Sequence record: NC_054906.1
Origin: Enterobacteria phage RB18
Length of the DNA stretch: 64,000 nucleotides
Direction: 5' to 3' (one strand)
Shown here: positions 2,448 to 19,152 of the stretch, piece after piece
How positions within the stretch are numbered: position 1 is the stretch's first letter
Layout: each line of letters opens with the position of its first letter
The notes under the pieces: model-generated
The model's input: the letters and a program-made list of their open reading frames with translations, nothing else
Database searches by the model: none
What the model was told of the DNA's origin: nothing
Program-made: the position numbers and the translations under genes

Positions 2448-4267
2448 TACTGGCTCATCCATTCTTTACGAAGGTCAGCATTATCTCCCATGAGCATTTC
2501 AAAAAGCTCTTTCCAGTTCTCAGGAAGTTTAACAACATCATATACTGGGTTTTGAATCATCTCACGATATTCAGATTTTTCCAAAGAGCCAAGTCCCTTA
2601 ATATAACGGATGCTATGTTTAGGTAGAGCATCTTTGGCACTCTCATATTCAGCGACTGTATAAAACCATTCTTGTTTTTTACCGACCTGAGCGATGATTA
2701 CAGGAGTTTTGACAAAGCGAATTCGTCCTTGCTCAAACAATTCTGGCCAATTACTAAAAAATCCGAGCAGAGAAGGATAAATGCTTCCTAGACCATCATG
2801 GTCAGCATCAGTCATAATAGCAATATTATGATAATTCAAGTTTTCAGCTTTTTCACCAAGAACTAATCCAGTGATTGCGCAAATATCAAATAGTTCTTTA
2901 TTTTTAAGCATATCAGCATATGACATACCCCAACTGTTGAGAACTTTACCACGCAATGGATAACCACCATGAAGTTCTTTATCACGAACATCAATAAGAT
3001 ATCCGATAGCAGAATCACCCTCAGTCAAGAAAAGAGTAGTATCAGCATCTTTACCGCAAAGATTCGCTTTGATATGTTTATGAACCTTAGCTTTAGAAGC
3101 CTTTTTAGCTGCTTTAGTTTCTGCTGCTTTTTCTGCCGCCAATTTACGAGCCAAAGCAGCTTCAATAATCGGCATTAGAATTGCTTCATTATTTAGAATA
3201 GCACGTGAAATCTTTTTAGCATCAAGTTGAATATGACTACGGATTTCACCAAATGGAGAAGTCAAACGCTCTTTAGTTTGAGAATCAAATCGCATGTTTT
3301 TCATATCACGAACAAACATAACGATAGTCAAACATTCTTTGACACGCGCTTTGGTTACATCAATTTTGAACTTACGTTTGATTTGTGGAATAAGGTCTTC
3401 ACAAATATCATCCATAACACAGTCAATGTGATGGCCACCATTCTTAGTATGAATGTTATTGACGTATGTTAATTGACGAAAACCATCTGGTGAACGACCA
3501 ACCGCAATAGAACAATTTTCTTGTTCTTGAACGATAGCATGTTCATCATACTGTCGTGCGTATTTCTTAAAATTACCCTGAACCTTTTTACCATTAAAGG
3601 TAAATTGAATATCAGGATAAACAACAGCAAGTGTCTGGAGACGATCCAGTGTAATGTCAAGATAAACTTGGGACAGCTCATTAGTTTCAAATGACATAAA
3701 ATCAGGAATGAAAGTAACACGAGTTCCTTTCCATTTTCCAGGAATATCTTCCCATGATTTATTTTCCATGCCATTTGAGCAACGAACTACAATATTATTT
3801 TGACCATCGCCAGTTTCACCGACAAACATCACAGAAAAAATGTTTGTCAAACTAGAACCAACACCGTTCATACCGCCAGTGACGCGTTCTTTATCATCAC
3901 CGAAGTTACCACCTGCTTTTGGAATAGTCCATGCGGCAACAGGACCAGGAATTTCTTCACCGGTAGGTGTTTTAACCATCGCTTGTGGAATACCGCGACC
4001 GTTATCTTCAACTGTTACTTGATTGTTTTTAATAGTAACATTAATTTTATTTGCGAATTTAAACTTAGTACGAATACCTTCATCTACTGAGTTATCGATA
4101 ATTTCATCAATAAGCTTAACAAGACCAGGTACATACTGAACACTTTCCCATTTACCAAACAGAAAGCGCTCATGCATTTCATTAGCAGAAGAGCCAATAT
4201 ACATGCCGCTACGCTTTTTGATATGTTCAATATCGCTCAGAATTTTAATTTCATTCTTAATCATCAC
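2447..4267 (-). CDS. 39: DNA topoisomerase II large subunit, unsplit T2-type gp39 (GHKL ATPase + TOPRIM)
   Basis: 606-aa ORF; no separate gene 60 between rIIA.1 and 39; conserved position. Confidence 0.9.
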   Translation of the reverse strand: MMIKNEIKILSDIEHIKKRSGMYIGSSANEMHERFLFGKWESVQYVPGLVKLIDEIIDNSVDEGIRTKFKFANKINVTIKNNQVTVEDNGRGIPQAMVKTPTGEEIPGPVAAWTIPKAGGNFGDDKERVTGGMNGVGSSLTNIFSVMFVGETGDGQNNIVVRCSNGMENKSWEDIPGKWKGTRVTFIPDFMSFETNELSQVYLDITLDRLQTLAVVYPDIQFTFNGKKVQGNFKKYARQYDEHAIVQEQENCSIAVGRSPDGFRQLTYVNNIHTKNGGHHIDCVMDDICEDLIPQIKRKFKIDVTKARVKECLTIVMFVRDMKNMRFDSQTKERLTSPFGEIRSHIQLDAKKISRAILNNEAILMPIIEAALARKLAAEKAAETKAAKKASKAKVHKHIKANLCGKDADTTLFLTEGDSAIGYLIDVRDKELHGGYPLRGKVLNSWGMSYADMLKNKELFDICAITGLVLGEKAENLNYHNIAIMTDADHDGLGSIYPSLLGFFSNWPELFEQGRIRFVKTPVIIAQVGKKQEWFYTVAEYESAKDALPKHSIRYIKGLGSLEKSEYREMIQNPVYDVVKLPENWKELFEMLMGDNADLRKEWMSQ

Positions 4268-15633: not shown

Positions 15634-15833
15634 TTTGAATGCTCTATAATTAATTTTAAGGCTTCTTCACACACCAACTTGTCTAATGGTATATGCCCAG
15701 TTTTAATTGTGTAAGCTTTGTGGAGCTGATTAGATAAGAGCTCGTATGTGAGCTCTTTGTCATAATCTTTAAATAGCTGGTCAATACGTTTCTTGCGGGC
15801 TTTCTTAAGCTGGCGTTTATTTAAACGAGCCAT
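15630..15833 (-). CDS. hypothetical small basic protein
   Basis: 67-aa ORF. Confidence 0.45.
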   Translation of the reverse strand: MARLNKRQLKKARKKRIDQLFKDYDKELTYELLSNQLHKAYTIKTGHIPLDKLVCEEALKLIIEHSK

Positions 15834-16351
15834 TAATAGCCTCTGTCTTGACGAGCGAAGTTTTCAGCATTTTTCAGATAATAAAGTTTAAATATTTCTT
15901 CAGCTGACATTCCAAGAGCAATGAATTTATTCATGAAAAAGTGAAATTGATCAATCAGTTCAAATTTAATTTCAAGTTGATCTTCAGGAGATAAATCTTG
16001 AATTTTCTTGGATTGCATTTCAGAATAACGTTTCTTCCAAGGTTTCCATACAGCAGAAGCTTCTTTTTCACCATTACTCATACCACCAAGAGAAGTATAT
16101 AGCTCGCGAGTTTCGTCTGCGATATAATCGTCTTGGTTTCGCAGCCAAGCAAGAACTTCTCCTGCAGTTTCAAGTGAATCAGGATGACGATTTGTTTCTG
16201 GTTTATCATTAGCCAAACGAATCTGTAAATGCCGCTGCATATCAAGCATAACCTGCAGTGGGTCAATATTGTGCATAATATTCTCAGCATATGCACGATT
16301 TGCTTTATCAACACCTTCGATCAAATGAGCACATTCATTAAAGTAAGCCAT
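15833..16351 (-). CDS. 56: dCTP/dUTP pyrophosphatase gp56 (MazG-like)
   Basis: 172 aa from the internal ATG at 16351 (AGGAAA RBS), beginning MAYFNECAHLIEGVDKA like T4 gp56; the track N-terminal extension is rejected. Confidence 0.8.
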   Translation of the reverse strand: MAYFNECAHLIEGVDKANRAYAENIMHNIDPLQVMLDMQRHLQIRLANDKPETNRHPDSLETAGEVLAWLRNQDDYIADETRELYTSLGGMSNGEKEASAVWKPWKKRYSEMQSKKIQDLSPEDQLEIKFELIDQFHFFMNKFIALGMSAEEIFKLYYLKNAENFARQDRGY

Positions 16352-16385
16352 TATTTTTCCTTTCAATTCATGGGTTAGTAGATTA

Positions 16386-16410
16386 ATTATACAATAAATA
16401 TATAAAGCAA
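16386..16410 (-). promoter_or_regulatory. MotA-dependent middle promoter for gene 56
   Basis: minus strand reads TTGCTTTA, 11 nt, TATAAT. Confidence 0.45.
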
Positions 16411-16422
16411 TAAGGAGGACAT

Positions 16423-16623
16423 ATGATACAAAAATTAATGGCACTTGTTAATGCCATAAAAGGTAATAAGAAACGTATAGCTTTTACTATTTCTGCTATG
16501 GTAGGAATTTTACTCTGGAACTTTATTTTATCACCTGTTGCAATTGCACATGGTATTAATATTCCAGTAGTTACTCTTGATACATTCGTAGATTTAGCAT
16601 TTGCTTTAGTTGGGTTAATTTAA
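16423..16623 (+). CDS. candidate plus-strand small hydrophobic membrane protein
   Basis: 66-aa ORF in the 268-bp gap between 61 and 56; AAGGAGG SD 3-4 nt before the ATG; two predicted hydrophobic segments. Confidence 0.3.
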   Translation: MIQKLMALVNAIKGNKKRIAFTISAMVGILLWNFILSPVAIAHGINIPVVTLDTFVDLAFALVGLI

Positions 16624-17650: not shown

Positions 17651-17815
17651 TTACTCTTCTTTTTCTTTAGATTCCTCTTTTTTCTTTTTAGGAATCTGTT
17701 CAGGGCCTTTATTTACTACAGCGCCTGACGTTGTTCCAGTAGAGATATTTTCAGGATTACCACCTGAATCTCCAGCGACCATATCTTCTTTGATAAATTC
17801 TTTATATGTTTTCAT
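17651..17815 (-). CDS. small protein with capsid-targeting-sequence-like N-terminus (54 aa), absent from the ORF track
   Basis: MKTYKEFIKEDMVAGDSGG... resembles the T4 internal-protein CTS MKTYQEFIAE; fills the gap between flanking genes exactly. Confidence 0.4.
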   Translation of the reverse strand: MKTYKEFIKEDMVAGDSGGNPENISTGTTSGAVVNKGPEQIPKKKKEESKEKEE

Positions 17816-17816
17816 A

Positions 17817-18173
17817 TTAACCTCTATTCATAAAAGCATTAAAAATTTGGTCATCAATAGATGGAATAGCAACCTTTTCGGCATCATTTAGCAAATCATT
17901 AATTTCATCAGATAGCATAACACATGTGCCTTTATTTCCTGTAATTGTTACTGCGCAATTACGAACGTTTTCTTTATCAAATTTTAGGTTAATATTTTCG
18001 TAGTGAAAATCCTTTAATGCCGAATATATCTTTAAAATGAAATTGTCTTTTACTACAATAAACCCAACTTCACTATTAAAACGTGGTTCATGGAAACTGT
18101 AATAAACCTTTTCATCTATGAAATCGTATGAAATTTTTTCCATTTTTAAATATGAAAATTCAGAACTATACAT
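17817..18173 (-). CDS. hypothetical protein sharing a C-terminal tail with the next gene
   Basis: 118 aa ending SIDDQIFNAFMNRG; 3' end lies inside a 45-nt direct repeat. Confidence 0.5.
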   Translation of the reverse strand: MYSSEFSYLKMEKISYDFIDEKVYYSFHEPRFNSEVGFIVVKDNFILKIYSALKDFHYENINLKFDKENVRNCAVTITGNKGTCVMLSDEINDLLNDAEKVAIPSIDDQIFNAFMNRG

Positions 18174-18174
18174 A

Positions 18175-18801
18175 TTAATCTCTATTCATAAAAGCATTAA
18201 AAATTTGGTCATCAATAGAAACATTTACTTTAGACTGTTTTTCAGATGGCAATTCATATCCACATATTACAATTTTATGATCAATATCAAAATACACAGA
18301 AGCAATATGATTAATGATATTTTCAGTGAAGTCTAAATCGACATCAATATCTTTTTGACCACAGCCCAAAGGATAAATAATGCGAGTAATTCGATTATCT
18401 TTAACAAATATTCCACCGACATACTCTGTACTGCGTTTAAAGTCTACACGCCGACGAAATGAAAAATATTCAGGCTCTTTATGAGCTCGGCTCATAGGAC
18501 ACAACGAATAACTAGAATAAGAGATGTCAAATCCTACGCCTTCGATATGAGCCAAAGTGTCATGATTAAACCAATTATAATCGTACGCCAAATCCATTAG
18601 ATTATAATATGTAAAAGGCACCGGATTAACATCATTAGTCACAAGCATGTAATTAGCAACTGCTATAATTTCATTGTTTTTAACGAATACAAACCGTGAT
18701 TGATGCGAATGACCTGGACCCGCGTTTTCACGATTAATGATATAACACTGGGCACCTTTATATTTGTATGTATCTTTGCACTTGTGCATTTGATAGAGCA
18801 T
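18175..18801 (-). CDS. hypothetical protein
   Basis: 208 aa ending SIDDQIFNAFMNRD; 3' end lies inside the same 45-nt direct repeat. Confidence 0.5.
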   Translation of the reverse strand: MLYQMHKCKDTYKYKGAQCYIINRENAGPGHSHQSRFVFVKNNEIIAVANYMLVTNDVNPVPFTYYNLMDLAYDYNWFNHDTLAHIEGVGFDISYSSYSLCPMSRAHKEPEYFSFRRRVDFKRSTEYVGGIFVKDNRITRIIYPLGCGQKDIDVDLDFTENIINHIASVYFDIDHKIVICGYELPSEKQSKVNVSIDDQIFNAFMNRD

Positions 18802-19094
18802 TATTCACCTACCACTTCAGCGATGATATTTTTGTTATTAAAGTTTTTATCGCAATACAGAACATAATTATACTGCATTACACCACCAGACTTAAGTTGT
18901 TTTTGCACTTCAGCTTTCATTTCAGGACGATCACGCTCAACGATATTCATAATATCCGCTTCAATTTGAGTTTCAACTTCAGTCTGATCCGCAGTCATAG
19001 ACCATTCGCACAAATCTTTATCATAACCTGCCATAGCAGGCTGAGCAGCGCAAGAAGCTAAAGCAAAAATTGTAGCAAAGATAAATTTTTTCAT
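18801..19094 (-). CDS. predicted lipoprotein
   Basis: 97 aa; signal peptide with lipobox LASC. Confidence 0.55.
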   Translation of the reverse strand: MKKFIFATIFALASCAAQPAMAGYDKDLCEWSMTADQTEVETQIEADIMNIVERDRPEMKAEVQKQLKSGGVMQYNYVLYCDKNFNNKNIIAEVVGE

Positions 19095-19122
19095 GATAAT
19101 CTCCTCAGTAGTTTATGTTTAT

Positions 19123-19152
19123 ATAGTATCTCAATTTCCAACAAAAGTAAAC
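19123..19152 (-). promoter_or_regulatory. early promoter (GTTTAC-18-TACTAT)
   Basis: minus-strand consensus upstream of the lipoprotein gene. Confidence 0.5.

Follow-up and report, generated by a model that had tools for sequence, protein, structure and literature searches.

In T4-like phages, the dmd-tifA-sp-adfA region has been named the "anti-TA island" (PMC9391042). One of its products, AdfA (T4 gp61.2, Pfam family PF23813), reportedly binds the DNA ADP-ribosyltransferase DarT1 and thereby neutralises it; the exchange R164H in RB69 AdfA switches DarT1 binding on, whereas T4 AdfA shows weak binding to DarT1, and T4 is resistant without it. The T4 middle promoter P61 has its start site at position 19122 (Hinton review, PMC2988021, Table 1), and the MotA box of such promoters follows the consensus (a/t)(a/t)(a/t)TGCTTtA, placed 12 ± 1 bp from a –10 element TAtaaT (Hinton review, PMC2988021). 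T4 also deletes and amplifies DNA via repeats that may be only 6–10 bp long (PMC9391042). Both adfA and P61 are already known.

The locus described here lies in a window (the whole stretch of DNA that was analysed, 64 kb) of a Tequatrovirus (T4-like) genome, in a region that is 98.9% identical to phages slur02/slur04. On the minus strand, the genes follow in the order 41, dmd, 61.4, sp, 61.2, a 118-aa gene, 61.1 and 61. The 208-aa gene in the 61.2 position is, judged by its sequence, adfA itself within the dmd-tifA-sp-adfA island. The product of the 118-aa gene, which we call S, carries the same C-terminal tail as AdfA, belongs to the same genomic slot and has a weakly similar body, but it is about half as long, contains one domain and shows Asn or Cys at the specificity position. 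A repeat copy at the S/61.1 junction (copy 1) agrees at all 49 nt with the T4 sequence that surrounds the mapped start of P61, including the MotA box, the 12-bp spacer and the –10 element TAATAT. Unlike T4, this phage has a near-identical second copy 358 nt upstream (start to start), at the junction of adfA and S (Table 1).

The dmd-tifA amplifications of Srikant et al. (PMC9391042) concern the same neighbourhood, and there, too, short direct repeats change the gene content. Those repeats are microhomologies of 6–10 bp, whereas the repeat here is 49 nt of functional sequence and the event is deduced from natural variants. The PeSL mobile regulatory cassettes of T4-type phages, which Arbiol et al. 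are said to have described in 2010, are reportedly intergenic early promoters with stem-loops. As in these cassettes, an optional ORF of a variable region is bordered by a promoter-bearing repeat, which could allow the ORF to be excised and re-inserted. The repeat here differs in that it is coding, carries a promoter of the middle type and shows no significant hairpin, with RNA and DNA folding energies no better than those of shuffles (z 0.15 and –0.69); we do not regard it as a PeSL-type cassette.

Table 1. Positions of the genes, repeat copies and expression signals at the adfA–61 locus.
Feature	Position in window	Strand	Basis or content
Gene 61, DNA primase, 342 aa, served by P61	16620..17648	-	Annotation of T4 and relatives
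Gene 61.1, 54 aa; its ATG closes repeat copy 1	17651..17815	-	phrog_1823, E 7e-34; T4 synteny
Repeat copy 1, S/61.1 junction	17813..17861	-	Last 14 S codons, TAA, T, ATG of 61.1
Promoter sequence in copy 1	MotA box TAATGCTTTT 17832-17841; -10 TAATAT 17814-17819; predicted start 17807	-	P61 equivalent
Shine-Dalgarno GAGG	17821-17824	-	Copy 1, for 61.1
S, 118-aa single-domain AdfA-family paralogue, absent from T4	17817..18173	-	phrog_4122
Repeat copy 2, adfA/S junction	18171..18219	-	Last 14 adfA codons, TAA, T, ATG of S
Promoter sequence in copy 2	MotA box 18190-18199; -10 18172-18177; predicted start ~18165	-	Second P61-type copy
GAGA	18179-18182	-	Copy 2 counterpart of GAGG
adfA (T4 gene 61.2), 208 aa, two-domain full-length member	18175..18801	-	PF23813, phrog_3781, T4 synteny
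sp (spackle), 97 aa, conserved upstream neighbour	18801..19094	-	ORF list, T4 comparison

Several observations concern the surrounding genes. Between gene 56 (15833-16444) and gene 61, the window holds only a 66-aa ORF (16423-16623, plus strand), the equivalent of which is called a predicted membrane protein in the Sf21 record; the same interval is occupied by dam in T4 and by a 181-aa ORF together with dam in T2. The 54-aa gp61.1 has a second match, to the C-terminal third of phrog_2086 (156 aa). In other genera (loci L022-L033, ~3180-3650), a 61.1-like sequence, ...NKGPEQIPSKKRK..., forms the C-terminus of a protein of 154-164 aa, so that 61.1 of the T4 type may be what remains of a longer gene, or a piece split off from one. 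The spackle protein of the T2 RefSeq record (L002, NC_054931.1, 2194-2472) has 92 aa and a different C-terminus (...NKNNHR) due to one extra A relative to the gene for the 97-aa protein of T4 and the window, which could be a real frameshift or a sequencing error. In the Gaprivervirus VR25 (L004, KP007361.1, 2859-3080), a 73-aa gene follows S with the same TAATATG junction, and its product is annotated as similar to T4 gp61.4 (TifA, the ToxN inhibitor). This gp61.4-like gene behind S suggests that anti-toxin genes have been shuffled within the island.

The repeat is real and neat, and it is mostly explained by known biology. A repeat search reported a single direct-repeat family, in which the two copies agree at 48/49 nt (98%). 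Each copy consists of the last 14 codons of one gene and its TAA stop, then a single T and the start codon ATG of the gene that follows; read on the minus strand, the codons are TCT (Ser), ATT (Ile), GAT (Asp), GAC (Asp), CAA (Gln), ATT (Ile), TTT (Phe), AAT (Asn), GCT (Ala), TTT (Phe), ATG (Met), AAT (Asn), AGA (Arg) and G(G/A)T (Gly or Asp). The 208-aa protein ends in ...VSIDDQIFNAFMNRD and the 118-aa protein in ...PSIDDQIFNAFMNRG. The sole mismatch, between 17821 (C on the plus strand, G on the coding strand) and 18179 (T and A), sits in the promoter spacer and makes the last residue Gly in one copy and Asp in the other. A 34-nt core, with up to three mismatches allowed, occurs exactly twice in the window and had no match in 100 dinucleotide-preserving shuffles; the chance expectation is zero. 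The earlier note had placed the copies at 17815-17860 and 18175-18220, which is the same feature with the second copy about 2 nt out of register, and it was right about the lengths of the two genes, the tail of 13 residues that they share and the layout of stop, one nucleotide and ATG.

The 208-aa protein matches the Pfam profile PF23813 (AdfA) with an E-value of 9.3e-136 and 450.4 bits (cut-off 27), over residues 1-207 on profile positions 1-210. It belongs to phrog_3781, its gene shows 96% nucleotide identity to T4 61.2, and this gene lies downstream of sp in the dmd/61.4/sp/61.2 cluster, in the same order as in T4. By profile, identity and synteny, the gene is adfA, encoding anti-DarT factor A. 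At the DarT1-specificity position (the R164H site of RB69), the AdfA protein of the window has His. Its AlphaFold2 (AF2) model is of moderate quality (pLDDT 68) and resembles two beta-meander-plus-helix units. Profiles of S without the tail also score the N-terminal half of AdfA, with up to 12.2 bits versus a shuffle maximum of 4.1, and a similar motif recurs in the N-terminal half of AdfA (VFVKNNEIIAV), its C-terminal half (IFVKDNRITRI) and S (VVKDNFILKI). Pairwise BLAST gave no significant match for an internal duplication in AdfA, and hhalign gave weak signals (probability 35%). A tandem duplication of an S-like domain within AdfA is thus suggestive only. Where adfA alleles differ, they do so mainly in the 5′ third of the gene.

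Is the body of S related to AdfA beyond the shared tail? S matches phrog_4122 (E 6.7e-73) and also passes the PF23813 threshold with 34.1 bits (cut-off 27; residues 22-118 on profile 113-211), but this score derives mostly from the tail: S without its tail had no Pfam hit, while a doubled tail alone reached 36.7 bits. After this tail-removal control, we dropped the Pfam match as stand-alone proof of membership. The bodies were compared instead by HMMs built from tail-less alignments, which were scored against the other family in both directions and against 200 shuffles; they gave 10.6-17.7 bits versus shuffle maxima of 7.6-7.8. AF2 modelled S with confidence (pLDDT 84). The four best Foldseek matches of this model in BFVD, which represent the other tail-bearing families, were an S orthologue, a 157-aa Yersinia phage protein, a 212-aa protein and the 145-aa protein of VR25 (124-144 columns, TMq 0.51-0.56), the next match having an E-value of 8.8e-3; E-values were 1.5e-4 to the 212-aa protein, which has the length of AdfA, and 4.1e-4 to the 145-aa family, and the rmsd values of the matches were high. 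A joint alignment of S and AdfA contains the invariant body columns F115, G129, D135, I138 and V178, and the independent AF2 models of the two proteins show the same order of secondary structures, in the register of the BLAST alignment. Comparison of S with AdfA by hhalign gave low probabilities (6.6-35%) and placed S on the N-terminal half of AdfA. Taken together, the tail-free profile scores, the Foldseek matches and the matching secondary structure argue, at modest significance, that the body of S is homologous to an AdfA domain, probably the C-terminal half. The earlier note had called the two proteins otherwise unrelated, a description that does not stand, since both appear to belong to the AdfA family.

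At the AdfA specificity position 164/165, S has Asn72 or Cys73, depending on the alignment, and neither His nor Arg. T2 carries S and lacks adfA, and T2 without adfN forms no plaques on DarTG1 cells; this sensitivity indicates that, at its native level in T2, S fails to neutralise that DarT1. Because S keeps the domain with the specificity helix while Asn or Cys replaces the His or Arg of AdfA, our best guess is that S may be a toxin-binding inhibitor with a specificity other than that of AdfA. In the Tequatrovirus BCH953P2 (L052, OZ035785.1, 1301-1340), the first 10 codons of S contain small deletions and an in-frame stop, and the gene is intact from Met11, the position at which the T2 annotation also starts S; this could reflect decay into a pseudogene, a mistake in the assembly or translation from the second start codon.

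The shared tail, (S/A)(I/V)DDQIFNAFM(N/K)(R/K)(G/D), was invariant in all AdfA- and S-type proteins examined, that is, in 16 AdfA-type proteins and in 15 S-type proteins with body identities down to 26%, and it is likewise invariant in the 145-aa family phrog_8539. The slot after sp holds tail-bearing genes in all genera examined: in several genera of the Tevenvirinae, the genes following sp encode AdfA (208-219 aa), phrog_8539 (145 aa) or S-type proteins (117-122 aa), all with the same tail, and proteins of 126, 111 and 138 aa encoded in the same slot end in the degenerate tails DIDSQIFNYWMKK, SDDDIFNAWMKR and VDDQIFNFWIGHV, respectively. The body of phrog_8539 is beyond sequence recognition relative to AdfA and S, with the tail alone shared by sequence. 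The earlier proposal that the tail is a motif was broadly correct in view of this invariance on such distant bodies. Few clusters turned up in a word-indexed protein search, and an exhaustive one showed that the family is indeed small. Among 19 distinct tails from several genera, the DDQIFNAFM codons vary only synonymously (GAT/GAC, CAA/CAG, ATT/ATA, GCT/GCC/GCA, TTT/TTC). The second Asp is encoded by GAC in 16 of these 19 tails though the phage prefers GAT (79%), and no known signal explains this. Both AF2 models show the tail as a short low-confidence helix after a linker of variable length, and it may represent a docking or structural (conditionally packed) helix needed for function. The idea of clamp binding was set aside, as the tail resembles the C-terminus of gp43 (SLDFLFG) only loosely. 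The literature searched contained no description of S or of the tail conserved across families.

The repeat contains signals at the nucleotide level that the earlier note had missed, namely the mapped promoter P61 and a Shine-Dalgarno sequence that serves the gene behind it. In NC_000866, the ATG of 61.1 lies at 19130, and relative to the P61 start site, positions –12 to –7 read TAATAT and –35 to –26 read TTAATGCTTT. This base-by-base mapping places P61 entirely inside the repeat: the –10 element is composed of the stop TAA, the single T and the first two bases of the ATG, and the MotA box lies on the Asn-Ala-Phe codons. In this phage, the MotA box TAATGCTTTT matches the consensus wwwTGCTTtA at 9/10 positions with a 12-bp spacer in both copies, and both –10 elements fit TAtaaT at A2 and T6. 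The Shine-Dalgarno sequence GAGG is contained in the Arg-Gly codons (AGA GGT or CGA GGT), and this phage seldom uses either of these Arg codons. Promoters are independently annotated at both equivalent places in the record of phage Lutter, and the second P61 copy may be active in the phage studied here. A generic σ70 (–35/–10) promoter and terminator scan did not flag the repeat promoter, as expected for a promoter without a –35 region, and was uninformative, with 12 sites versus 10.2 expected and no terminators. Outside Tequatrovirus, the MotA cores are TGCCT or TGCAT, and the –10 element becomes TGATAT where the stop codon is TGA. Since the promoter elements are less conserved there than the peptide, the peptide appears to be the primary constraint and the promoter an overlay. 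The literature searched noted neither that P61 overlaps the codons of a conserved peptide nor that this promoter is duplicated.

The gene content of the slot is polymorphic. In T4, adfA is followed directly by 61.1 without S, and there is one repeat copy that ends ...RG as in the S copy; this is the arrangement that crossing-over between the two copies, with loss of S, would be expected to leave. T2-type genomes lack adfA and contain a 14-nt remnant of the tail end (TAGAGGTTAGTATG) between the stop codon of sp and S, suggesting loss of adfA from an ancestor with both genes. In Gaprivervirus, an S orthologue (47% identity) adjoins another tail-bearing gene, which indicates that the pair is old. 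As IMG/VR gave few Tequatrovirus loci, the frequencies of the arrangements are taken from junction-specific BLAST, which gave approximately 152 records with adfA and S and 141 with S only, adding up to the 293 records that contain S with at least 80% identity; these counts are approximate because BLAST sometimes merges the two matching pieces in genomes with both genes. The number of adfA-only genomes, about 145, is likewise approximate, being extrapolated from 226 matches, with 9/14 sampled rows showing a single piece. All three arrangements are common. The persistence of S between 49-nt repeats in phages of a type that recombines at 6–10 bp suggests that S is under selection.

Several other explanations of the repeat have to be weighed. 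It could be kept mainly as a DNA element, a duplicated P61 with a ribosome-binding site, of which the peptide is a by-product. The position of P61 inside the repeat fits this idea, as do the Phe and Asn codons that the MotA box overlaps with its upstream part and that are invariant (TTT and AAT in 19/19 tails), and the rare Arg codons AGA/CGA that create GAGG. We nevertheless regard it as improbable: the peptide stays invariant across genera while the promoter core shifts from TGCTT to TGCCT or TGCAT, the –10 element is lost with a TGA stop, all variation in DDQIFNAFM is synonymous, and part of the tail (S-I-D-D-Q) lies further upstream than the MotA box, outside any known promoter element. 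Alternatively, continuous gene conversion (concerted evolution) rather than selection on the peptide could keep the tails alike. Two independent copies encoding the same peptide with the codon usage of this phage would be expected to differ at ~5.4 of 13 codons; all 13 shared residues use identical codons (P 0.0005 under independent codon choice), including the rare codons GAC and AGA in both tails, and a stretch of 37 nt is identical between the two tails of L014/DK-13. The two tails of other genomes with the 210-aa adfA allele differ at 2-4/49 nt, and those of VR25, Yersinia phage P8 and pEC-M719 at 7-9/49 nt, with synonymous changes in the core and an unchanged peptide. In the latter three phages, orthologous tails are more alike across genomes than paralogous tails within one genome, which argues that pervasive gene conversion is not what keeps the peptide, and genomes with a single tail-bearing gene retain the same peptide. 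Concerted evolution as the cause of tail conservation is therefore highly unlikely. The near-perfect identity in this phage, set against the divergence in other genomes, is most simply explained by recent recombinational homogenisation, helped by the promoter and Shine-Dalgarno constraints.

The earlier note had suggested, as one of two possibilities, an exchange of unrelated cassettes, in which the tail serves as a recombination site for inserting or swapping unrelated N-terminal modules. One part of this proposal stood, namely gain and loss of the 118-aa gene: T4 lacks S and has one repeat copy, the presence/absence of S has its breakpoints inside the repeat, and each of the three arrangements is common. 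The proposal is also favoured by phrog_8539, which is alike in the tail alone by sequence. The other part did not stand, because no recombination breakpoint between adfA alleles was found at the tail; the mosaic breaks inside adfA, in its 5′ third. The body of S is related to that of AdfA, Foldseek connects the 145-aa family with S along its entire length, and the pair is old, as judged from the S orthologue beside a tail-bearing gene in a different genus, so that a cassette of unrelated origin is quite unlikely. An assembly or sequencing artefact from collapsed or duplicated reads, named in the earlier note as the finding that would overturn the repeat, has nothing in its favour beyond the general possibility that exists with short repeats. 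The adfA/S junction is present in 152 independent phage records (at least 80% coverage of a junction-specific query) as well as in IMG/VR contigs, and both ORFs are intact and conserved; these comparative data refute the artefact, the probability of which is negligible.

We consider it likely that the locus contains tandem genes of the AdfA family and that the repeat is the 3′ end module of this family, on which a peptide, P61 and a Shine-Dalgarno sequence are overlaid. The two-domain adfA and the single-domain S would be tandem members of one small family, and the module would be present twice because two such members stand side by side. Three signals would then share the same bases: an invariant C-terminal helix, ...DDQIFNAFM(N/K)(R/K)(G/D), that follows a variable linker; the MotA-dependent P61 driving the primase gene 61, with its MotA box on Asn-Ala-Phe and its –10 element formed by TAA, T and AT(G); and the Shine-Dalgarno sequence GAGG in the Arg-Gly codons, followed by the stop, one base and the next start. 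Selection at the peptide level would be the deep cause of tail conservation, and the nucleotide near-identity in this phage would result from the overlaid DNA and RNA signals together with recent recombinational homogenisation. Homologous recombination would also be able to use the repeat as a substrate, with crossing-over from one copy to the other deleting S and yielding the T4 arrangement.

A bolder reading, which we judge rather unlikely, takes the tail as a portable docking peptide that tethers different inhibitor bodies to one partner, with the underlying bases serving as a landing pad. It would cover at least three sequence families, AdfA (phrog_3781), S (phrog_4122) and phrog_8539, and in degenerate form phrog_37928, phrog_28853 and the 138-aa protein, all of which are encoded behind spackle in the anti-toxin island; a conserved surface of DarT-like toxins or a component of the replisome would be candidate partners. 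If true, the bases of the primase promoter, which cannot be lost, would provide a fixed site where anti-defence bodies are gained, lost and swapped.

Returning to the tandem AdfA-family genes with their overlaid 3′ module, AdfA belongs to the small number of phage inhibitors known to act on a DNA-ADP-ribosylating toxin. A single-domain relative is present even in phages that, like T2, are reported to lack adfA. Within the family as a whole, conservation is highest in the 12-residue C-terminal helix, which is an obvious target for mutagenesis and interaction studies. The 49 nt with three overlapping codes, for a peptide, a promoter and a ribosome-binding site, are a clear example of such an overlap, which helps to explain both the strong conservation of this sequence and its role as a recombination hotspot that changes the anti-defence gene content among natural T4-like phages.
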